Positions 3,065 through 41,875 are shown, numbered from the stretch's first letter. The stretch: 64,000 bases of DNA from Patescibacteria group bacterium (GCA_041675205.1 JBAYUF010000004.1:29898-93897), one strand, 5' to 3'. Program-made: numbers and translations. Notes: a model not told the origin generated them from the sequence alone.

Positions 3065-4274
3065 TATGCCTAAAATCAAAACGGACCCAAAAATAATTCA
3101 TCGTCTACTCACTCGTGGTGTAGAAACTGTTTACCCTACAAAAGAGGCTTTAGAGAAAGTTTTGTTATCGGGTAAAAAGTTGCGGATTTTTCATGGCATT
3201 GATCCGACCGGTAAGCTACACATTGGACACAGTGTCAGCTTGAGGAAACTTCGACAATTTCAGGACTTGGGGCACGAGGTTATTGTGCTCATTGGAGACT
3301 TTACGGCTCGCATTGGCGACCCGACCGATAAAAGCGCGACGAGGCAAGCATTGTCTAAGCGTGAGGTGCTTCAGAACGCTCACGACTATAAAAAAATAAT
3401 TGGTAAAATTTTAGATCTAAAGAAAACAAACGTCCGTTTTCTGCACAACGAAAAATGGACGAATAAGTTAAAGCCCGAGAACTTACTCGAGCTGGCGTCT
3501 TCGTTTACCGTTTCACGCCTCTTAGAACGGGACATGTTCCAAAACAGAATTAAAGAGGGCAAAGAAATACGCGTCCACGAATTTCTCTACCCAATTTTTC
3601 AAGCCTACGACAGCGTTACCATGGATGTCGATATTGAAATTGGTGGTAACGACCAAACATTTAACATGCTGGCTGGGCGAACACTGCTGAGAAAGTTAAA
3701 AGACAAAGAAAAATTTGTTTTGGCAATGAAGCTGTTAACGAATGCCGACGGCAAAAAAATGGGCAAAACCGAGGGTGTAAAAATCAATCTTGACTCCGCT
3801 GCTACTGACATGTACGGAATGCTGATGGCTGTGCCCGACACTTCTATTATCGACTTCTTTACATTGTGTACCGATGAATCGGACGAAGAAATAGAAAAAA
3901 TGAGGCGAGTACTCGCGTCTAGTTCATCAAACCCGCGCGACCTTAAAATGAAGTTGGCTCGAACAATTGTTGCGCTCTACCACAACGTGAAAGAAGCCAA
4001 AAAGGCGGAAGCAAATTTTGTAAACGTATTCCAAAATAAAGAGCAACCTGAATCAATTCCCACAGTCAAACTGACAAAGTGGCCAAAGACAATTCTTCAG
4101 GCGCTCGTTGTCTCAGGCCTCGCAACCAGTATGAGTGAGGCGCGACGCTACGTTGTGCAAGGTGGTGTACGCATTGCTGACAGTGTGGTCACCGACCCAA
4201 ATGCAATGCTCCCCGCTTCTCCGGTCATCATCAGCCGCGGCAAGCGACATTATTGCCGACTTCAAAAACAGTAA
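3057..4274 (+). CDS. tyrS: Tyrosyl-tRNA synthetase with C-terminal S4 domain
   Basis: HIGH motif (KLHIGHSV), KMSKS variant (KKMGKTEG) and an S4-like C-terminus are present. The start overlaps the valS stop by 8 nt. Confidence 0.88.
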   Translation: MASMPKIKTDPKIIHRLLTRGVETVYPTKEALEKVLLSGKKLRIFHGIDPTGKLHIGHSVSLRKLRQFQDLGHEVIVLIGDFTARIGDPTDKSATRQALSKREVLQNAHDYKKIIGKILDLKKTNVRFLHNEKWTNKLKPENLLELASSFTVSRLLERDMFQNRIKEGKEIRVHEFLYPIFQAYDSVTMDVDIEIGGNDQTFNMLAGRTLLRKLKDKEKFVLAMKLLTNADGKKMGKTEGVKINLDSAATDMYGMLMAVPDTSIIDFFTLCTDESDEEIEKMRRVLASSSSNPRDLKMKLARTIVALYHNVKEAKKAEANFVNVFQNKEQPESIPTVKLTKWPKTILQALVVSGLATSMSEARRYVVQGGVRIADSVVTDPNAMLPASPVIISRGKRHYCRLQKQ

Positions 4275-21802: not shown

Positions 21803-23176
21803 CTATGAGTTGACGTTACCTAATCGCTGATGAACAGCTGCACTATACGTAGACACCGAGAATCTCCGGTCACACCCTGAACGAGCCATAAAGCGAACCG
21901 TGCCGAAAATCGGCCGAGGAAACCATGGCCGGTCATGAACGCCGCCAATAGACCAGGCGATACCTGCGTAGCCATTGGGGTCTCGCCCGTCGACTTGATA
22001 CCGGTCATTCAACCCAACCGCAACGCGCATGGCAATGGTGGCTGAGGGTGACCACTCTAGTATTTTTTTTGCCCAGTACATGCGCAGGTACCCAGGCATG
22101 GTGCCGCAATGCACCAACTCAAGCTGGGCCGCATTCCACAGTTCGTCATGTGTCTGTGCCTTGTCTAACGTGGCTTCACTGTATAGGTACGGACGCTTAT
22201 CACGACTATGCTCTGCAAGTGTTTTTTGCGACCAGGCTGGAAAGCCTTTTATCGAGTCGTAGTTCTCATTGTAAAAACAAAAGTTCTCCGCCAGTTCACG
22301 ACGAACTATCAATTCTTCCAAGAAGGTTTCGGCTGCTTCTGACCGTGGCTGCTTCATAACTTCTAGAGCGACTCGGGCTGCTGCCAGTTGCCCAAAATGT
22401 AGATACGGCGACAACAGTGACTGCCCAGACTTCGTTGGATCATTACGATGCTCTTTGTAATGACGCAGTTTATTTTTTATAAAATATCGCATCTTTCGAT
22501 TCGCTTCTTTTGGTCCTGGTTCAAGTTCACTCGGCAAGCGAATCGCTTCATTTACTTGCACCGTGCGCCGTATCGTTGACCAGTTTACAGTTGGACAATT
22601 ACCTGACCACGGAAATGGATGACGCCGTACCTTTGGGAATGGTGTTAGGTACTCCGGCAACAGTCGCGTAATCTTTGGTCGCAATGTTCGAGCCGAGTAC
22701 TCTTGCTTTGGTGAAGCCAACCAGCACGGCACGATATTATGTGCATCAACCTCAATGAGTGGTACTGGCAGTTCTTTGGCTAATGTCGAACGCCACTCAC
22801 GAGCGCGTCGAAGTGGAGAAAAATCTGTTACCACTGCTCCAACTTTGTGACGGCGAACAAACACTTTTATTGCCTTTACCGGGTCGTCAAGCAGGATAAA
22901 AAATGGTAGCCGCAATGTACGTGCCTCTGTTGCAACGGCGCGTAACCCAGGAAGCATAAAATCAACCAGACGGGCTGTACCACGGTGCTGTCGTAAATCA
23001 GGGCGTAAACAGAAAACAACTATAAGGGGCACTTTTTGCTGCACGGCTAATGACTGCGCATGCGATAAGGCCCAATTATCTTCAATTCGCTGATCCCGAG
23101 ACATCCAGTACACGACAGGACCAACACCATGCGGTTTGTCGTTCAGTGTTCGAGCACGACGCAAGTCACTATGCAT
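21803..23176 (-). CDS. Deoxyribodipyrimidine photolyase (class II CPD photolyase-like)
   Basis: HGYLRMYWAKKILEWSP and WSIGGVHDRPW are typical of class II photolyases. Confidence 0.82.
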   Translation of the reverse strand: MHSDLRRARTLNDKPHGVGPVVYWMSRDQRIEDNWALSHAQSLAVQQKVPLIVVFCLRPDLRQHRGTARLVDFMLPGLRAVATEARTLRLPFFILLDDPVKAIKVFVRRHKVGAVVTDFSPLRRAREWRSTLAKELPVPLIEVDAHNIVPCWLASPKQEYSARTLRPKITRLLPEYLTPFPKVRRHPFPWSGNCPTVNWSTIRRTVQVNEAIRLPSELEPGPKEANRKMRYFIKNKLRHYKEHRNDPTKSGQSLLSPYLHFGQLAAARVALEVMKQPRSEAAETFLEELIVRRELAENFCFYNENYDSIKGFPAWSQKTLAEHSRDKRPYLYSEATLDKAQTHDELWNAAQLELVHCGTMPGYLRMYWAKKILEWSPSATIAMRVAVGLNDRYQVDGRDPNGYAGIAWSIGGVHDRPWFPRPIFGTVRFMARSGCDRRFSVSTYSAAVHQRLGNVNS

Positions 23177-32538: not shown

Positions 32539-32559
32539 AAAAAAAATAACGCGGCTAAC

Positions 32560-33150
32560 GTTGCGGCGCTTGCATACTCTACCCGCTTTCGACTAAAAAA
32601 GCAAGCCTAGCTTTGGGATGAGGCGGGTCAGCTAAAAGCTGCCCGCCTCGAGAAAAGGGTCACGTCACGACTGCGATTGGACTACTGAAGCCGCCTCCCA
32701 AGGCCAAAACCAATCGCTGAGTACAGTACAACGAAATTCCAGTACGAGTTACTCACATTCCTCATCACGAGGACGGGTAATGTGACGTACCACTGCACGG
32801 TTGTGTACCAGGACTCAGGCTCTTGTGTTTCTTCTGGTTTCATCTGCCCTACTCCTTTCTCCTCAACAATACAAACCTAGACCTCAAACCAAAGTTGGTC
32901 AACAAGGTACAACGCCTTGCTACCTTCGCTATGGGTTTTTATTTCATACCCCATAGGCTCGAGGTAGGCGTACGGAAGCGAAGACTGGTTGGTAGCCTTC
33001 GAGCCGCACTGTTTAAGTCCGAGCACCAGCGAGGACGAGTTTACGGCGAGCAATCAGTCGCAGTGAACCGTACCCACAACTCGGGCCGAGGGCGTCATTC
33101 TTTTGGTGACTTTTCTTAGACGAGTAAGAAAAGACACATCATGAACTTGC
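32560..33150. other. Long (about 640 bp) structured non-coding region between divergent typA and lexA
   Basis: Multiple stable hairpins are present. The first (gaggcgggtcagc...gctgcccgcctc) has about 12 bp. The second (ctatggg...cccatag) has 7 bp. The third (ggctcgagg...gccttcgagcc) has 9 bp. There is no convincing ORF. Confidence 0.35.
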
Positions 33151-33152
33151 GT

Positions 33153-33172
33153 TACTATACGTTCGTACAGTA
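33153..33172 (+). promoter_or_regulatory. Candidate SOS (LexA) box TACTATACGTTCGTACAGTA
   Basis: It matches the E. coli-type CTGT-N8-ACAG consensus with one mismatch (CTAT) and lies 12 nt upstream of the lexA ATG. Confidence 0.55.
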
Positions 33173-33183
33173 AACTATTATCC

Positions 33184-33756
33184 ATGACAACGCATGTAGA
33201 AAAGTTAGCGCAGTTCTATCGCACGCGCGATCGCATGCCAAGCTATGGTGAGCTCACAACGCTTTTAGGTTTTCGTTCTAAAAACGCCGCCACCTACTGG
33301 GTGGAACGTTGGCTGGAGCACGGTGTCGTAAAGCGTGACCGAACTGGTCGACTGCTCCCCGGTAAAGCACTCCTACCCATTCGACTGCTGGGTGACATCC
33401 AAGCTGGGTTTCCTTCTCCAGCAGAAGAAGAGAACGTCGACACTATCTCTCTTGACGACTGGTTGATTGAACAACGGGAATCAAGCTTTATGCTGCGCGT
33501 CTCCGGAGATTCAATGCAAGACGCTGGCATTCTAACCGGTGACTACGTCATTTTAGAACGTGGACGTACTCCTAAGAACGGCGACATTGTGGTGGCTGAA
33601 GTAGACAGTGCCTGGACTATGAAATATTTCGAACGGAAAAACGGTGTCGTTGCTCTGCGGTCAGGGAACCGGCGCTACCCAACACTTCGCCCCAAAGAAA
33701 CATTAACTATCGCTGGTGTTGTTACCGTTGTTATTCGTCGCTACAAAACGCTATGA
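33184..33756 (+). CDS. lexA: LexA repressor (S24 peptidase)
   Basis: An N-terminal winged HTH and the C-terminal S24 Ser/Lys dyad (SGDSM...K) are present. Confidence 0.88.
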   Translation: MTTHVEKLAQFYRTRDRMPSYGELTTLLGFRSKNAATYWVERWLEHGVVKRDRTGRLLPGKALLPIRLLGDIQAGFPSPAEEENVDTISLDDWLIEQRESSFMLRVSGDSMQDAGILTGDYVILERGRTPKNGDIVVAEVDSAWTMKYFERKNGVVALRSGNRRYPTLRPKETLTIAGVVTVVIRRYKTL

Positions 33757-35057
33757 ACCCAGAAGGCACGCACTGGAAACGGGTCATTATCCACCTTGAT
33801 GGGGATGCTTTTTTTGCCAGCTGTGAGCAAGCCATGCACCCAGAGTATCGTGGCAAACCTGTTATCACGGGTAAAGAACGTGGCATTGTGGCTGCCGCCA
33901 GCTACGAAGCGAAGGCCTTAGGTATACAGCGAGGTGTAGCGTTATGGGATGTAAAAAAAATTTGCCCTGAGGCTATTATTGTGCCGTCAGATTACGAAAC
34001 CTATTCACTTTTCTCGGAACGAATGTTTGCCATCATGCGCCGCTATACTTCCACCATTGAAGAATACGGCATTGATGAGGGGTTTGCAGACATTACTGGC
34101 CTCGCTCGCCCCCTCGGTTTATCGTACATTCAAATTGCGCAAGCCATGCAAACGGCTATTCATCGAGAGCTTGGCATAACCGTTTCCGTTGGCATGGGGC
34201 CGTCGAAAGTGTTGGCGAAGCTTGGTTCAAAACATAAAAAACCAAACAGCCTTACCGTTATTTCCCCGGGGGAGAGAATCGGCTACCTCGCAGCAACACC
34301 AGTAGGAAAACTTTGGGGCGTCGGGCCACGCACTGCCGCCTATTGCCATACGCTGCACATAGAAACAGCCCTTGATTTTGCCAGCCAACCACTCGCACTC
34401 GTAACCCGCCGCTTCACGAAGCCGCTGGTTGAACTGTGGCATGAACTACAGGGCGAATCAGTACTCCCCGTGGTAACGGCAATAAAAAATACCTATGCCA
34501 GTATCAGTAAAACAAAAACATTTACTGCATCTCGCTGTCGAGAGCTTGTCTATGCACAGCTTTTAAAAAATGTAGAGAATGCGTGCATAAAAACGCGCCG
34601 GTACGACCTGGCAAGCAAGAAAATCATTATCTTCCTCAAGCAAAATGATTTTCGAACAAGCGCAGCTGAAGCCTCATTAACGCGTGCCACCGCCTACCCA
34701 CAAGACCTGGCGCGAGTGCTTCATGATTTGTTTGACCGCATCTTTATACCAGGTACCGACTACCGTGCCACGGGCATCGTCCTGACCGACATGGTTCTAA
34801 GTGCAGACGTGCAGCGAGCACTCTTTGAGCCACCCGTGACCCTTGAACGATTGCACAACGTGTACGAAGCCGTTGATGAATTAGCTGAGAAGTATGGCAA
34901 ACACACTGTTCACTTAGCTGGCAGTGAAATGGCTCATAGAGAACCTGCCCACAACTCCCAGAGAAGCGAGCTGCCAGAACGAAAACGAACACGGCTGCGA
35001 GGTGAAACCACCAGAAAACATTTGGCTATTCCCCTACTCCTGCACGAGCTACGATAA
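33753..35057 (+). CDS. Y-family DNA polymerase (UmuC/DinB-like, translesion)
   Basis: IIHLDGDAFFASCE and SYEAKALGI motifs are present. The start overlaps the lexA stop (ATGA). Confidence 0.85.
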   Translation: MNPEGTHWKRVIIHLDGDAFFASCEQAMHPEYRGKPVITGKERGIVAAASYEAKALGIQRGVALWDVKKICPEAIIVPSDYETYSLFSERMFAIMRRYTSTIEEYGIDEGFADITGLARPLGLSYIQIAQAMQTAIHRELGITVSVGMGPSKVLAKLGSKHKKPNSLTVISPGERIGYLAATPVGKLWGVGPRTAAYCHTLHIETALDFASQPLALVTRRFTKPLVELWHELQGESVLPVVTAIKNTYASISKTKTFTASRCRELVYAQLLKNVENACIKTRRYDLASKKIIIFLKQNDFRTSAAEASLTRATAYPQDLARVLHDLFDRIFIPGTDYRATGIVLTDMVLSADVQRALFEPPVTLERLHNVYEAVDELAEKYGKHTVHLAGSEMAHREPAHNSQRSELPERKRTRLRGETTRKHLAIPLLLHELR

Positions 35058-35059
35058 CT

Positions 35060-35596
35060 CTAACCACCAACAATAAGTCTGTAGAGTAATTTCGTTATTG
35101 GATCAAGGTCTGGACCATATACCAATAACCCACCAAGACCACCCGTTAAGGTAACTGCCATAAGCCCTGCCATCGCAGTAACTGGCGCTAACCAACTCGA
35201 AACGACACGCTCTGCGATACGCGCTAGGTTAAATACGAATGACGGTAGTCCTTTTGCTACTCGACCACTCAGGCGTTCGAGTAGCCCAAACTCTGTAGCA
35301 ACAACAAGGACGTAGCAAACAGCAAGCACACTGAAAATGATAGTGGTTGTCTGCGCCGCTAGTTCGTGAAGCTCAAGAATGCGCAGAAAATCCCCACCCG
35401 CGCCGAATGACTCACCGGCAATATCACCGGTTAACAATGCCACTCCGGCACCGATAGTCCCTGGTAGGAGAAAAAGTGCCTTGGCATATCGCCACCATGG
35501 CAGAGCGAGCACAATTCGGAACCGTAAAAATTCCAACCCGACATACACGGTGAGTAGCGCGATTGGAAAATGAACAACGATTGGATGAATATCCAT
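35060..35596 (-). CDS. Hypothetical membrane protein (DUF2231-like)
   Basis: It has 4-5 TM helices and is probably co-transcribed with the upstream nuclease gene. Confidence 0.45.
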   Translation of the reverse strand: MDIHPIVVHFPIALLTVYVGLEFLRFRIVLALPWWRYAKALFLLPGTIGAGVALLTGDIAGESFGAGGDFLRILELHELAAQTTTIIFSVLAVCYVLVVATEFGLLERLSGRVAKGLPSFVFNLARIAERVVSSWLAPVTAMAGLMAVTLTGGLGGLLVYGPDLDPITKLLYRLIVGG

Positions 35597-35607
35597 ACGT
35601 TTTTTAT

Positions 35608-36360
35608 TTAGGTTAATTGCCGCACGGCACCAACGTAACTACAATAATCGCAATCTTTCCCGGGCAGCGGCACGACTGAGCCATCCATACAACGTCGAAG
35701 CGCAAAGATAGTATTTTGAATCCATGCGTCATCCCCCGTATAGGGAATAAGCGTGACCTCAAATTCAATCTTACCGTCAAACGCTTTCCGATCAGTTAGC
35801 CCATTGCAGTACACGAAATAACCGGTCGAAGAAACCTTATGTCCGTTCTGTCTGAGAAGCCACTGATAAATCTCCATCTGACGCTTATAACCAATATGCC
35901 AGTCCTGGTTCAGGCTGGTGATGCTTTCACCTTTGCTGGTGGCTTTGTAATCAACGACAATGTATTCACCGGCGGAATTTTGCCAGAGGTCGTCAATGGC
36001 GCCGGTGATGATGAGGTTCGTTGTCTCGTGTAAGTATTCAATGCCTTTAAAATTTTCTCGCCAATCATTCAATTGCTCATGCGCCACAGGCCGAGCATCA
36101 ACGCCATATTTTTCAATAAGCGGATGTTGCGTGCCATTGACTCGATGAATATCGAATTCTTTTTTAAGAAGTGTGTCGACCGCAGTGTTAAGGTTGAAAG
36201 GAAAACCCGGTGGCCGGCCAACACCTAACCGGCGGTCAAGATAAAAGCAACGGGGACATTCGATAAATAAATCTATTTTTGAACGACTAATTTTGAATGG
36301 TCGAGGGCTTGCCGGGTCAAAAATATTCCGTGTTCGAGTGGGATTATAGTATTTGCTCAT
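35608..36360 (-). CDS. PD-(D/E)XK nuclease superfamily protein, Cas4/RecB-like with Cys cluster
   Basis: An N-terminal CPRC, the motifs IITGAIDDL and IVVDYK (D...D/ExK), and a C-terminal C-x14-CDYC suggest an Fe-S nuclease fold. No CRISPR array is nearby. Confidence 0.6.
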   Translation of the reverse strand: MSKYYNPTRTRNIFDPASPRPFKISRSKIDLFIECPRCFYLDRRLGVGRPPGFPFNLNTAVDTLLKKEFDIHRVNGTQHPLIEKYGVDARPVAHEQLNDWRENFKGIEYLHETTNLIITGAIDDLWQNSAGEYIVVDYKATSKGESITSLNQDWHIGYKRQMEIYQWLLRQNGHKVSSTGYFVYCNGLTDRKAFDGKIEFEVTLIPYTGDDAWIQNTIFALRRCMDGSVVPLPGKDCDYCSYVGAVRQLT

Positions 36361-36450
36361 ACCGAAAGTATAGCACGGCGCGCGTTTGACGCTCTACTCG
36401 ATTCGCTATAAGATTTTGTCCTCTTTCGACAATTTCAGGAGGAACTCGCC

Positions 36451-37482
36451 ATGAACGACAAGGACGTATTGAATGCGGCAATCGACTGGCTTGTTGCCGA
36501 CCGGCTGCCGAATGACTTCTCTTTCACAACCTGCCTAAAGGCACTCTTCAAATGCGACGATGTGCCTTTGATCGCTCGATTTCTCAGCGAGCACTTCGCC
36601 TGGCTACGGCACAACACTGCTGTGGCACACGAGCACATCATCGAAGCCTTCTGGCTACTAAAAACGGAGCCAGTGGTGGTGCCCGGTCGGGTACTACAGC
36701 TTGGTGGAACCGGCGGCGCAGGTAAATCACGCAGACTGAACACCACGAGTTTAGCAACACTTGTGGCGGCCAGCGTGGATAGCGGCTGGCAGATAGTGAA
36801 GTTCGGTAATTCCGGACAACGCACGGCGGGCAGTACCGACTTCTGGGAAATAGCACTCGGTATTCCTGGAAGCTCACTGAACGTCGCACGCGCAACGAGT
36901 ACTCTACCAACAACTGGTTTGGCCATTATTCATGCCAGAACGGTCATCCCCTTGCTCGGAAAATTGCGCGCAGCCCGCCAGCAAGTCCAGGGGCCTACTG
37001 TTCTGAACCTCGTTGGTCCGTTGCTTCACCCTATCTACGGCGAAGAAACAATGGCGGCGATTGGGGTTTTTGACGAGAAGTTCCTGATGCCAGTAGCGCA
37101 CGCCATGCAGCAGCTTGGTTTGTCTGGGGTTGTATATAGCGGCACAGGCGAGCACGGTAGCTGGCTCGATGAACTCTCTTCAGACGGCATGACCTACGTG
37201 ATTGGTATTGGGCGGAACGAATTGTACCGTCCGGCAACGCTGCTCACTCAGTACTTTTCCACGTCAGAAACAGTGAGTGCAGCTGTCCTCGACAGACTCG
37301 TCCAAGGTGACGTTGAAAACCCTGCGGCTCGATGGGTTATCGAAAATGCGGCGTTCTTACTTGCGGCCACTGGTCGACCGGGCAGCGCACCAAATGCAGC
37401 GAGTGTTCGAGAGGTGACGATCACACTGAACAACGCCGTACGAAATGGTTCGGTGAAACGCCTCATTGAGGCATACCGATAG
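36451..37482 (+). CDS. TrpD2/YbiB-like protein (anthranilate phosphoribosyltransferase family, glycosyltransferase family 3)
   Basis: Gly-rich loop LQLGGTGGAGKSRRLNT; GC-rich with AGGAGG SD. Confidence 0.6.
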   Translation: MNDKDVLNAAIDWLVADRLPNDFSFTTCLKALFKCDDVPLIARFLSEHFAWLRHNTAVAHEHIIEAFWLLKTEPVVVPGRVLQLGGTGGAGKSRRLNTTSLATLVAASVDSGWQIVKFGNSGQRTAGSTDFWEIALGIPGSSLNVARATSTLPTTGLAIIHARTVIPLLGKLRAARQQVQGPTVLNLVGPLLHPIYGEETMAAIGVFDEKFLMPVAHAMQQLGLSGVVYSGTGEHGSWLDELSSDGMTYVIGIGRNELYRPATLLTQYFSTSETVSAAVLDRLVQGDVENPAARWVIENAAFLLAATGRPGSAPNAASVREVTITLNNAVRNGSVKRLIEAYR

Positions 37483-39962: not shown

Positions 39963-41078
39963 TTACACTGCCGCAGGCTTCTCTCGACCAAAAACAATTG
40001 CCGCCAGCAAGCTACTTAACGGCACTGCCAAAACAAGTGCGGAAGAACCAACCAGCGTACGAATGACTTCTTCTATAATTATTTGGCTGTTTAACGTTAC
40101 CCAAAGTGGCTGAGTAGGAAAGGCGGCCACGAGCAAAAACAAAGGGAACGATGCGCCGGCATAGGCCAGGGCCAGTGTATTCACGAGCGCTGCAATATGC
40201 TCTCGACCCACCGACATACCACGGTGATAAAGTTCGGTTACCGAAAGTGAACCATTCGCTTTGTGGATTTCCTCGATAGCCGCTACCTGACTCGTTGTAA
40301 CGTCATCGAGTACGCCTAAGGTACCAATAATGATGGCACCAAAAAGTAAACCACGTAAATCAAGATTCTCAAACTGCCCAACCTGAATGTAGTACGCCTC
40401 TTCTGAAGCAGCACCGGAAAGTTTTGCAAACAGCACTGCCAGCCCAGCCACCGCAACGGTACCAAGCAAGGTGAGTAAGGTGCTGGTCAACGCCAGCCAT
40501 GTACGTTGCGTATGGCCATGGGCAACAAAAATTGAAATAACCGCAATCACGGCGGCACCCAAGACGCACACCCACAGCGGGCTGTACCCATGAAGAATGA
40601 GTGGCACAATTGCGAAAGCAATTACCGCAATACTAATGCCAAGGCCCACTATCGCACCTATCCCCTGACGTCTTCCTACTACTGCGACCAATAAAAAGAA
40701 TAGTCCGAACAGAGCGCCAACCCGCGGCAATCGATAGCGTTCGGCTATGTAATAACGCTCTAACGACTCATCATCTTCCGACCGAATCAGAACGACTGTT
40801 TCACCAGCAACTGCAAACTCACCCTCTCGAACGAGGTAATCACCGCCATGACGGATATCAAAAATTTCACCAGCATCAAGGCCACCAAGAACTCGAACAC
40901 GTACATCTTGATAGGTTGATGCGCCATTTTCTGTTTCATCGCTCCCGGTGCGTAGTACTTCAATCACCTCGCCGCGAACATAGGTATTGTAAATAACCGG
41001 CGCTTCTGTTTCTGCGGCAGCAATTATCGGCAGCGACCAAACAATGATGCTGAGGAGAGCAATAGTTCGACTACGCAT
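39963..41078 (-). CDS. YibE/F family membrane protein
   Basis: A signal peptide and periplasmic domain are followed by a polytopic C-terminal region. Confidence 0.55.
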   Translation of the reverse strand: MRSRTIALLSIIVWSLPIIAAAETEAPVIYNTYVRGEVIEVLRTGSDETENGASTYQDVRVRVLGGLDAGEIFDIRHGGDYLVREGEFAVAGETVVLIRSEDDESLERYYIAERYRLPRVGALFGLFFLLVAVVGRRQGIGAIVGLGISIAVIAFAIVPLILHGYSPLWVCVLGAAVIAVISIFVAHGHTQRTWLALTSTLLTLLGTVAVAGLAVLFAKLSGAASEEAYYIQVGQFENLDLRGLLFGAIIIGTLGVLDDVTTSQVAAIEEIHKANGSLSVTELYHRGMSVGREHIAALVNTLALAYAGASFPLFLLVAAFPTQPLWVTLNSQIIIEEVIRTLVGSSALVLAVPLSSLLAAIVFGREKPAAV

Positions 41079-41499
41079 GTTTCTTAGAGCAGCGCATGCA
41101 AAGTCCAAAAAATTCTAAGGCGTGTTCGTCAATACGAGCGAAAGATTTTGTTTGTTTCAATACTTTTCGACGTACAGCAGCAATACCACACTCTTGAAAA
41201 TTCTCTACTGCTCCGCAGTTTCGACACACTACGTGATGATGGTCGTCTGAAGCAACTTCATAGTGCGCATGGCCATGACGCAAATTGACTTGCCGCACAG
41301 CGCCGCAGTTCTCAAGCGATTCAAGTGTTCTGTACACGGTCGCTTGATCAGTCGTCGCCGTAAGCCCAGCAAGAACACCGCGGATACTAAGCGGCCCAGG
41401 CGCGTGTAGTAATGTGTCTAAAATAGCAACGCGTGAAGCAGTTACCCGTAGACCTTTTGATTTTAAGATATTCCTTGAAGTGACTGTAATTTTTTTCAT
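41071..41499 (-). CDS. Fur family transcriptional regulator (Zur/PerR-like)
   Basis: A winged HTH, the HHHVVCRNCG motif and a C-terminal CxxC are present. Confidence 0.85.
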   Translation of the reverse strand: MKKITVTSRNILKSKGLRVTASRVAILDTLLHAPGPLSIRGVLAGLTATTDQATVYRTLESLENCGAVRQVNLRHGHAHYEVASDDHHHVVCRNCGAVENFQECGIAAVRRKVLKQTKSFARIDEHALEFFGLCMRCSKKHA

Positions 41500-41506
41500 A
41501 CCGTTG

Positions 41507-41875
41507 CTACTCAAGTAGCAGGAACGTTGCGCTGACGTTACGGTCAGAAAAACGATACTCCAGAATTTCGCCTTCAGCTTTCTTCTCTGCTAACCACATC
41601 GCAACAACTTTTCGTAAGGCGCCAGTGCCGATACCAAAAATTATCTTACCTGTGCGCTGACTCTGGTACACCGCTTGATCCAAAAAATCATCCAACTCAC
41701 GAAGCGCTTCAGCCACATTCTTCCCGTGTAAATCTAGCTGTGGGGTTTCTGGATTCACCCCTGCTGCCGCCAATATGGTGCCACGGATATCCGAAACTGG
41801 TGGGGCAACTTCGCTAGGTGAACCAGCACCTTCGCGCATTTTCAATTTCCATGATTTTGGCATAAGCGTAAGCAT
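41507..41875 (-). CDS. Smr domain protein
   Basis: An LDLHG motif is followed by the Smr fold. Confidence 0.72.
   Translation of the reverse strand: MLTLMPKSWKLKMREGAGSPSEVAPPVSDIRGTILAAAGVNPETPQLDLHGKNVAEALRELDDFLDQAVYQSQRTGKIIFGIGTGALRKVVAMWLAEKKAEGEILEYRFSDRNVSATFLLLE

Follow-up and report, generated by a model that had tools for sequence, protein, structure and literature searches.

The stretch of DNA considered here, 64,000 nucleotides from a Patescibacteria group bacterium (GCA_041675205.1; the whole stretch is referred to as the window), contains at 33147-35057 what is likely a self-contained, autoregulated SOS unit, composed of lexA and a translesion polymerase gene and unrelated to the genes beside it. 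We infer from the sequence the binding of LexA, the dependence on RecA, the transcription start site and the activity of the polymerase. An earlier interpretation of the same DNA, the sequence-only reading, had drawn the boundary wider and combined the genes of the 33153-37482 region into one repair island; these are five, encoding LexA, a Y-family polymerase, a membrane protein, a PD-(D/E)XK nuclease and a Glycos_transf_3 protein. The unit as delimited here consists of the following elements.

33147..33152, plus strand: -35-like hexamer TTGCGT, seen in the sequence; orthologues have TTGAC(A/T) there, directly left of the palindrome
33153..33172, unstranded: probable LexA operator, the 20-bp palindrome TACTATACGTTCGTACAGTA, indicated by its uniqueness in the window, its matrix score and the orthologous promoters
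33171..33176, plus strand: -10-like hexamer TAAACT, seen in the sequence, overlapping the right end of the operator
33184..33756, plus strand: lexA, encoding a repressor of 190 aa that has an N-terminal winged helix and a Peptidase_S24 domain (4.9e-26)
33753..35057, plus strand: gene for a Y-family translesion polymerase of 434 aa (IMS, IMS_HHH and IMS_C domains), in ATGA overlap with lexA

The palindrome has the form TACTATACG-TT-CGTACAGTA, with eight of the nine arm positions complementary, and it occupies the 18-nt spacer of the TTGCGT and TAAACT hexamers. It ends 11 nt before the lexA start codon; the palindrome that had been proposed as a LexA box just upstream of this gene is confirmed. 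Within the window it is the sole match to TACTGT-N8-ACAGTA at no more than one mismatch, where 0.08 matches are expected; when two mismatches are allowed, the count in the window is no better than chance. The palindrome is very probably the LexA operator on its own gene, with binding as a prediction, because orthologous lexA promoters carry a palindrome at the same position. We compared 165 loci with LexA relatives, of which 80 came from GTDB species genomes, 80 from metagenomes and the remaining 5 from an exact look-up of four close homologues. In nearly all of these loci a palindrome lies between a TTGAC(A/T) -35 and a TA(T/C)A(C/A)T -10 hexamer before lexA, and it is kept at that position by every close relative and by the majority of the approximately 110 distinct orthologous promoters. 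The operator of the locus L084, whose LexA is 88% identical to that of the window, is TACTGTACGTTCGTACAGTA; those of L085, L083 and L081 (an Uhrbacteria contig) are TATTGTACGAACGTACAGTA, TATTATACGTTCGTATAGTA and TATTGTACGAATGTACAATA, each again between the -35 and -10 hexamers. We give next to no credence to the view that the palindrome is a chance inverted repeat, the terminator of an upstream RNA or the site of another regulator. Although at least one match with up to one mismatch arises in 7 of 100 shuffles of the 64 kb, and although a gene-free stretch of 645 nt with a terminator-like hairpin (33085-33107) lies directly upstream, a like palindrome sits at the same place in the lexA promoters of dozens of genomes from several phyla, its type changes in step with LexA sequence identity, and it has no run of T residues.

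The relatives have a -10 element of the form TA(T/C)ACT or TATAAT, 6–8 nt before the ATG and with no Shine-Dalgarno sequence, and in the window 7 nt separate the -10-like hexamer from the ATG. This spacing points to a lexA mRNA that is leaderless or nearly so, and the lexA mRNAs throughout the clade are probably leaderless, with their start site placed by prediction. The loci where a close -10 and the absence of a Shine-Dalgarno sequence were seen at lexA include L003, L009, L012, L013, L020, L033, L048, L084, L085, L087 and L091.

It is informative to examine how the operator varies with the repressor. Relatives with at least 58% LexA identity all have (G/A)TAC-N4-GTA(C/T) with extended arms, giving for this subclade the consensus TAnT(G/A)TACG-ww-CGTA(C/T)AnTA over 12 distinct sites, with a perfect GTAC-N4-GTAC in 7 of the 12. 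In short form, the close relatives share TAyTGTACG-ww-CGTACArTA. Relatives below 58% have GAAC-N4-GTTC as their operator, without a mismatch in 79 of the 97 distinct sites. Compared with this box, the window site (ATAC-GTTC-GTAC) differs at three positions and shares the register and the AC-N4-GT core. Hence we read the window operator as a variant of the wider clade's GAAC-N4-GTTC operator, one of the GTAC-N4-GTAC type, whose TA-T arms are extended and whose flanks have converged on the arms of the E. coli box; it is predicted to work like a GAAC-N4-GTTC box, as a derived form of it. A LexA clade that recognises GAAC-N4-GTTC, which the sequence-only reading had named as telling against its own proposal of an E. 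coli-like box, is therefore what was found in part: the wider clade has this operator, and the subclade itself has (G/A)TAC-N4-GTA(C/T).

The likeness to E. coli is nonetheless real within limits. The E. coli SOS box, TACTGTATATATATACAGTA, is likewise a 20-bp palindrome overlapping the lexA promoter, the subclade arms TAyTGTAC resemble the E. coli arm TACTGTAT (TAyTGTA compared with TACTGTA), and the left arm of the subclade operator is separate from the -35 hexamer. In addition, the window site, CTAT-N8-ACAG, has one mismatch to CTGT-N8-ACAG. However, a site within one mismatch of that motif occurs in only 4 of the 12 subclade sites and 2 of the 97 sites of the wider clade; the outer C/G of CTGT/ACAG is present in 33% of subclade half-sites, the invariant bases being TAC/GTA; and the centre (ACGTTCGT in the window) follows a CG-ww-CG pattern conserved in the subclade, in contrast to the AT-rich (TA)n centre in E. 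coli. Furthermore, the window LexA is no orthologue of gammaproteobacterial LexA, and the label "E. coli-like" fails because most operators in the clade of this LexA are GAAC-N4-GTTC.

Other known LexA boxes can be compared as well. The Gram-positive box, or Cheo box, is GAAC-N4-GTTC, and the cyanobacterial box was reportedly defined by Mazon et al. in 2004 as RGTAC-N3-DGTWCB. Both have the 12-bp geometry xxAC-N4-GTxx at the promoter that is found in the window clade, and the GTAC-N4-GTAC of the subclade resembles the cyanobacterial form, although the window LexA is not close to the LexA of Bacillus or of cyanobacteria. Members of the clade itself are found in Sideroxydans and Gallionella (L052, L056, L059 and L062), whose LexA proteins are 32–35% identical to that of the window over the full length and have the same AGFPSPAEE region; they have GAAC-N4-GTTC boxes before lexA, whereas the window subclade has GTAC/ATAC half-sites and longer arms (TA-T...A-TA). 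The Sideroxydans LexA is said to bind GAACGaaCGTTC, in work by Sanchez-Alberola et al. that appeared in J Bacteriol in 2015. These betaproteobacterial members differ also in that their lexA has no linkage to a polymerase gene. Two GAAC-N4-GTTC boxes about 20 nt apart lie before lexA in L052, L054, L056, L057, L059 and L062, which come from Sideroxydans, Gallionella and Usitatibacter.

The clade thus offers, in the shift from GAAC-N4-GTTC to TGTAC-N4-GTACA, a natural series for the evolution of LexA specificity. Whether the box is GTAC or GAAC does not follow cleanly from any one residue of the recognition helix: Tyr38, frequent in the GTAC subclade, is found with GAAC boxes as well. GTAC or mixed GTAC/GAAC half-sites are present in distant branches as well (L023, L038, L044, L051 and L103), which belong to Kiritimatiellia, a pseudomonadote, Peregrinibacteria, a zetaproteobacterium and an unassigned metagenome contig (L103), and the switch between A and T at the second position of the half-site seems to have happened several times in the clade. 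Upstream of lexA in L007, L030 and L080 (Saccharibacteria, Paceibacterota and Peribacteria) no palindrome of this type was found; lexA may have another operator there or lie inside an operon. A patescibacterial SOS network is reportedly the subject of Sanchez-Osuna et al. 2017 (Environ Microbiol). A citing paper suggests that this 2017 work may also have had direct-repeat motifs (PMC7739468).

The window holds one such site. With a matrix built from the sites of ten relatives, the window's own site being left out, that site scores 29.5 bits and the next best 20-mer in the window 9.0 bits, while the maxima of shuffled sequences average 11.1 bits and reach 18.5 at most. No other part of the window matches G[AT]AC-N4-GT[AT]C, and the other matches to TAC-N4-GTA have no arms. 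By matrix and patterns alike, no LexA box is present between the divergent nuclease and Glycos_transf_3 (TrpD-like) genes, in the upstream region 36361-36450 that they share, and the boxes looked for upstream of 36360 and of 36451 are accordingly not there. In the subclade loci, too, the site at lexA is the only one found.

Gene order gives further evidence. The sequence-only reading had noted that lexA overlaps a UmuC/DinB-like polymerase gene, and this was borne out by the 4-nt ATGA overlap and the Y-family domains of the product. Among the loci with at least 1.5 kb of sequence downstream of lexA, a polymerase gene lies on the lexA strand no more than 300 nt downstream with these frequencies.

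LexA identity of at least 58%: 6 of 6 loci
LexA identity of 42–58%: 23 of 37 loci, and within 3 kb in 4 more
LexA identity below 42%: 1 of 56 loci

The lexA-polymerase pair is conserved across phyla. The LexA clade itself is widespread, with members in the candidate phyla radiation (CPR), Saccharibacteria, Planctomycetota, Verrucomicrobiota, Syntrophales and others; homologues of the window protein carry the source names Candidatus Uhrbacteria, Parcubacteria and "Patescibacteria group" bacteria, and the gene content of the window is similar to that of the Uhrbacteria contig (L081). The DNA of the window is thus that of a CPR bacterium. The nuclease gene, in contrast, is near lexA in 2 of the 165 loci (L084 and L005), the TrpD-like gene in one (L084), and a DUF2231 gene in none, being absent even from L084. 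The downstream neighbours in L081, L083 and L085 are Nramp, CTP synthase and MsrB. The conserved unit is lexA and the polymerase gene alone, because the other neighbours are not conserved, and the gene order proposed for the whole block holds for this pair only, the rest recurring just in the closest relative.

The LexA protein has sequence features of a self-cleaving repressor. Its residues 18-186 align to residues 25-198 of E. coli LexA (phmmer and BLASTP), and within this span residues 18-70 align to the E. coli winged helix (25-80), with GFRSKNAA in place of GFRSPNAA. The recognition helix thus starts with S-K-N-A-A where E. coli has S-P-N-A-A, and the two Glu residues that come next in E. 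coli are Thr-Tyr here. The Ala74-Gly75 cleavage site and the Ser110/Lys147 dyad are invariant in 34 homologues. Several sources name homologues of the protein LexA, and its size, 190 aa with a winged helix, sets it apart from UmuD, which has about 140 aa and no DNA-binding domain.

Several observations weigh against a lexA-polymerase unit of this kind, or against parts of the evidence for it. Both hexamers of the window promoter are weak, matching at 8 of 12 positions, and a simple promoter scan missed the lexA -35 and -10 for that reason. Because AC/GT at the inner positions was a condition of the automated site picker, the information at the four inner columns arises partly by construction; the raw upstream sequences, inspected by eye, have the same operator pattern as the picker output. 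The N-terminal domain has no match to the Pfam family LexA_DNA_bind at E = 0.01, and the NCBIfam LexA model TIGR00498 gives 105.7 bits over both domains, a narrow miss of its cut-off of 110.95. The scans for LexA boxes cover the 64-kb window, which limits what they say on the size of the regulon and on any distant boxes. Lastly, L084 has the order lexA, polymerase, nuclease, TrpD-like gene; since the nuclease and TrpD-like genes stand beside the polymerase gene there, a lineage-specific functional link may exist.

This last locus, with its perfect TACTGTACGTTCGTACAGTA, is also an argument for taking 33153-37482 as one SOS mutagenesis/repair island under an E. coli-type box, with the nuclease and DUF2231 proteins and a YbiB-like TrpD2 protein as members. 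Such an island could further draw on the single base that separates the window site from CTGT-N8-ACAG, and on the fact that E. coli ybiB lies within a LexA-controlled operon with dinG (PMC10123104). We nonetheless consider it very improbable, and largely refuted. There is no second box anywhere in the window, synteny is gone beyond 88% LexA identity with DUF2231 missing even at that distance, the nuclease homologues elsewhere adjoin defence genes, and the TrpD-like protein is not similar to YbiB and retains a GTGG loop that TrpD2 proteins lack; of the subclade half-sites, as said above, just a third keep the outer C/G of CTGT/ACAG. The description of the block as a compact repair island therefore does not survive the single box per 64 kb and the loss of neighbour order. 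Overall, what the sequence-only reading observed is largely right, and its interpretation holds for the left 1.9 kb but not beyond.

Returning to the lexA-polymerase unit, the second gene product combines features of two polymerase families. Its best NCBIfam match is Pol IV, at 233 bits (cut-off 381), compared with 151.8 bits for the UmuC model NF002955 (cut-off 431), and its best matches in the PDB are DinB. The polymerase also aligns to residues 6-414 of the 422 residues of E. coli UmuC at 26% identity, tail included, with a clamp-type motif QRALF where UmuC has QLNLF, and the tail motif GETxRKhLxIPLL is kept in 30 lexA-linked homologues. Conserved tails of this sort mark Y-family polymerases that bind a small partner, for example UmuD' or YolD (PMC6511836). 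The same work, by Timinskas and Venclovas, describes a RecA-N-terminus-like motif (PMC6511836). A stretch of this type in the window polymerase is weakly similar to E. coli RecA, since 60 of 2000 shuffles score as well by Smith-Waterman alignment in the expected register, and no match was obtained when the polymerase tail was compared with the RecA N-terminus by BLASTP. The protein is thus best described as a DinB-like catalytic core to which a UmuC-like C-terminal extension is joined, and its activity is predicted on that basis.

In the mechanism that we propose, a dimer of LexA would bind the 20-bp palindrome in the spacer of its own promoter and block RNA polymerase. Upon DNA damage, RecA filaments formed on single-stranded DNA would bring about self-cleavage of LexA at Ala74-Gly75 by the Ser110/Lys147 dyad. 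The operon would then be transcribed, probably as a leaderless mRNA, and the polymerase, translated by coupling at the ATGA overlap, would perform translesion synthesis.

It is also worth considering whether the first gene product is primarily a repressor. In an alternative that we regard as rather unlikely, this S24 protein is primarily a UmuD-type accessory subunit that has acquired, or kept, a DNA-binding domain, and acts as a local regulator, like UmuDAb of Acinetobacter, and not necessarily as a global SOS repressor. The C-terminal domain indeed aligns with E. coli UmuD at 35% identity and with a single gap (BLASTP, E = 3e-24), UmuD is the top PDB match (8gmt), the NCBIfam UmuD model NF007621 gives 107.2 bits (cut-off 110) on this domain alone compared with the 106 bits of the LexA model on both domains, and AGFPSPAEE in the cleavage region resembles CGFPSPAAD of UmuD; by these measures the resemblance of the C-terminal domain to UmuD is no weaker than that to LexA. 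For its part, the polymerase aligns with UmuC through the clamp motif, the RecA-N-terminus-like stretch and a conserved tail of the type discussed in PMC6511836, and there is a single operator per 64 kb. Two variant forms belong here as well. L110 (988-1389) encodes a UmuD-sized homologue of 133 aa that is 52% identical to the window C-terminal domain and lacks the winged helix; a polymerase gene of the same clade follows 18 nt downstream. L037 (1718-2260) encodes a form of 180 aa with the same C-terminal domain and an unrelated N-terminus, again upstream of a same-clade polymerase gene. Against a primarily UmuD-type role, the AGFPSPAEE region is retained in the LexA proteins of the clade's betaproteobacteria, which are not linked to a polymerase, and in Sideroxydans these proteins control a full-sized regulon. 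Likewise, the catalytic core of the polymerase is closer to DinB, which needs no UmuD', and the similarity of the RecA-like stretch to E. coli RecA is weak, as given above.

Short of that alternative, the two functions could be combined in the autoregulated SOS unit. The unit looks like a umuDC-like cassette whose UmuD carries a LexA DNA-binding domain, because the C-terminal domain is as close to UmuD as to LexA and the polymerase aligns end-to-end with UmuC. The L110 and L037 variants, taken with the UmuD and UmuC likeness, suggest that the cleaved C-terminal domain could act as a UmuD'-like subunit. That the 116-residue C-terminal fragment, once set free by RecA-triggered cleavage at Ala74-Gly75, is in fact an accessory subunit of the co-translated polymerase, with the intact protein as SOS repressor, we consider unlikely. 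If true, such a dual role would make the unit a minimal, self-contained Pol V-type mutasome cassette and possibly a living intermediate between LexA and UmuD; the UmuD-like domain, the UmuC-like tail and the UmuD-sized variants make this testable.

Comparison with known systems places the unit further. In E. coli umuDC, as in the window, an S24 gene comes directly before a Y-family polymerase gene, with an overlap of 1 nt there and of 4 nt in the window, and co-linearity between the window polymerase and UmuC reaches to 8 residues from the UmuC C-terminus. E. coli UmuD, however, has a 24-residue arm where the window protein has a LexA-type DNA-binding domain of 70 residues, umuDC is repressed by a separate LexA whereas the window operon would be repressed by the product of its own first gene, and the core of the window polymerase scores higher with DinB models (233 compared with 152 bits). 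The nearest precedent for a hybrid of UmuD and LexA is UmuDAb of Acinetobacter, a self-cleaving protein that resembles UmuD but has, like the window LexA, an additional DNA-binding domain at its N-terminus; by binding to a palindrome it represses both its own gene and those of error-prone polymerases (PMC7273328). UmuDAb differs in being paired with ddrR and not in an operon with a polymerase gene, and Acinetobacter has separate umuD genes; the N-terminal domain of the window protein is clearly LexA-like. For Geobacter sulfurreducens, operons of the type lexA-(imuB-C)-polY are described, by Jara et al. 2003 as cited in PMC6511836, as autoregulated and damage-induced, with lexA co-transcribed with a Y-family polymerase gene. 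They have another LexA clade and box, and the window has no ImuB-C gene between lexA and the polymerase gene. Autoregulated operons of lexA and a translesion polymerase gene have been described before, for Patescibacteria, Geobacter and others; the window unit is a routine example, and the value of the present analysis lies mainly in correcting the annotation, namely the type of operator, the absence of an island and a TrpD-like protein that is not YbiB.

The three genes downstream are the following.

35060..35596, minus strand: gene for a membrane protein of 178 aa, borderline DUF2231, not part of the SOS unit
35608..36360, minus strand: gene for a stand-alone Cas4/RecB-type PD-(D/E)XK nuclease of 250 aa (PDDEXK_1, 6e-16), not part of the SOS unit
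36451..37482, plus strand: gene for a TrpD-family protein of 343 aa (Glycos_transf_3, 3e-20), divergent from the nuclease gene and not part of the SOS unit

The polymerase and membrane-protein genes are convergent, with stop codons 2 bp apart (35052-35062), which leaves no room for a terminator between them. The membrane-protein gene lies 11 nt downstream of the nuclease gene on the minus strand. The operon of a nuclease and a DUF2231 protein that had been proposed holds in so far as the two genes are adjacent on the same strand; the DUF2231 assignment is borderline, at 25.7 bits with a Pfam cut-off of 26.4. As a conserved operon the pair was rejected because no other locus has it, the DUF2231-like gene being absent from all other lexA loci and from the nuclease loci examined.

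The nuclease itself was correctly recognised as a stand-alone PD-(D/E)XK enzyme of the Cas4/RecB type with a Cys cluster. Its invariant residues D123, D137, K139, Q161 and Y165 form the RecB-type D, D/ExK and QxxxY motifs, and six Cys are invariant as well (C35, C38, C185, C224, C237 and C240). The Cas4 model TIGR00372 gives 27.1 bits (cut-off 65), PADLOC finds weak Cas4 matches of at most 33 bits and nothing for the neighbours, and a PDB sequence search with the nuclease had no match. The AlphaFold model (pLDDT 85) has Foldseek matches to the nuclease domains of AdnA/AdnB, Cas4, MGME1, Exo5, lambda exonuclease and AddB, with TM-scores of 0.4–0.5. We therefore class the protein as a member of the Cas4/RecB superfamily with a Cys cluster, whose metal centre would be Fe-S or Zn. 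The Cys pattern differs from that of Cas4, with CxxC...C...C...CxxC in place of C...CxxCx5C. The nuclease gene also has TATACT-TTCGGT-ATG on the minus strand (36358-36375) and no Shine-Dalgarno sequence, and its mRNA, like that of lexA, is probably leaderless.

Homologues of the nuclease number more than 8000, the top 120 being 67–98% identical and coming from many CPR lineages. No cas genes were found in nine neighbourhoods, and there is no CRISPR-like array anywhere in the window, in agreement with the absence of a CRISPR locus noted before. In six of seven sampled loci (L167, L168, L169, L174, L175 and L176, with the nuclease gene at 4001 or 5001 in each), which were picked by the length of available contig sequence and not at random, a defence gene lies 1–43 nt upstream of a nuclease homologue that is about 70% identical; these genes encode retron-type reverse transcriptases (210 bits), AbiP2 (547), type IIG restriction-modification enzymes (234) and PDC-S11 (419). 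A gene for a TIR-domain protein follows the nuclease gene in two of the defence-linked loci, and both flanks vary among loci. The context of the nuclease elsewhere is thus, from these neighbourhoods, one of defence, and none of it points to the SOS response. Consistent with this, Hudaiberdiev et al. 2017 note that in CPR and DPANN genomes solo Cas4 genes stand next to restriction-modification systems (PMC5704561). These solo Cas4 or pfam12705 nucleases of the CPR are like the window nuclease in being stand-alone members of the Cas4 superfamily with homologues beside restriction-modification genes, and in the window there is no CRISPR.

One may ask, then, whether 35060-37482 is a variable, defence-island-like slot abutting the SOS operon, with the nuclease as its recurrent resident or anchor and the TrpD-like and DUF2231 proteins as cargo. 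We think this quite possible, although we lean slightly away from it. The defence genes beside most of the sampled homologues, the TIR-domain genes in two loci, the variable flanks, the solo Cas4 precedent, the presence of DUF2231 in the window and its absence from L084, and the orphan character of the TrpD-like protein would all fit a slot of this kind. However, the window has no recognised defence gene and gives only weak Cas4 matches with PADLOC, the seven loci are not a random sample, L166 is without obvious defence genes, and a conserved housekeeping nuclease next to an integration hotspot would likewise account for some 70% identity across lineages.

For the last gene of the region, the sequence-only reading had proposed a divergent TrpD2/YbiB-like product. 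The divergent orientation and the Glycos_transf_3 domain stand, while the likeness to YbiB and the control by LexA do not. The TrpD model gives 86.9 bits (cut-off 199), the N-terminal helical domain Glycos_trans_3N has no Pfam match in the protein, and its PDB matches are true TrpD (1v8g, 8e-16). BLASTP against E. coli YbiB gave E = 6.6, and YbiB structures are not among the PDB matches. The motifs GGTGGAG, KFGN, GSTD and LDELS are retained. TrpD2 proteins are without the PRPP (phosphoribosyl pyrophosphate)-binding motif GTGGD (PMC9835598). The window protein keeps most PRPP-binding motifs; it has only the TrpD-type fold family in common with YbiB/TrpD2, and differs in keeping the GTGG loop and the K-x-G-N, GS-x-D and DE motifs. 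The TrpD2/YbiB identity was rejected on these grounds, that is, the E-value, the retained GTGG loop and the lack of a LexA box, and the product of 36451-37482 is instead classed, from its motifs and matches, as an orphan, divergent protein of the TrpD family. Among 5.8 billion proteins it has one identical counterpart, in a Patescibacteria MAG (locus tag WC052_03480), and a next best match of 34% identity, and the copy in L084 is 43% identical, although the LexA of that locus is 88% identical. A promoter-like TTGACG-17-TAAGAT (36386-36414) lies upstream of the gene, and the protein also matches the phage family phrog_15632 of unknown function (3e-13).

Elsewhere in the window, 32539-33183, between typA and lexA, comprises 645 nt without a convincing gene, which is long for a CPR genome. 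The terminator-like hairpin already mentioned lies at its end; the stretch has no Rfam or tRNA match, and its fold z-score is just -2.4. Of the other repair-related genes that had been listed, a GIY-YIG nuclease was found neither among 45 open reading frames scanned with Pfam nor by motif search, a scan that was not exhaustive, and two are present.

21803-23176: photolyase
41507-41875: Smr protein

The window scan found no LexA box upstream of either gene. The Smr-domain gene overlaps a gene for a Fur-family regulator, which itself overlaps a gene for a YibE/F membrane protein (41071-41875), and its context is one of metal homeostasis rather than repair.

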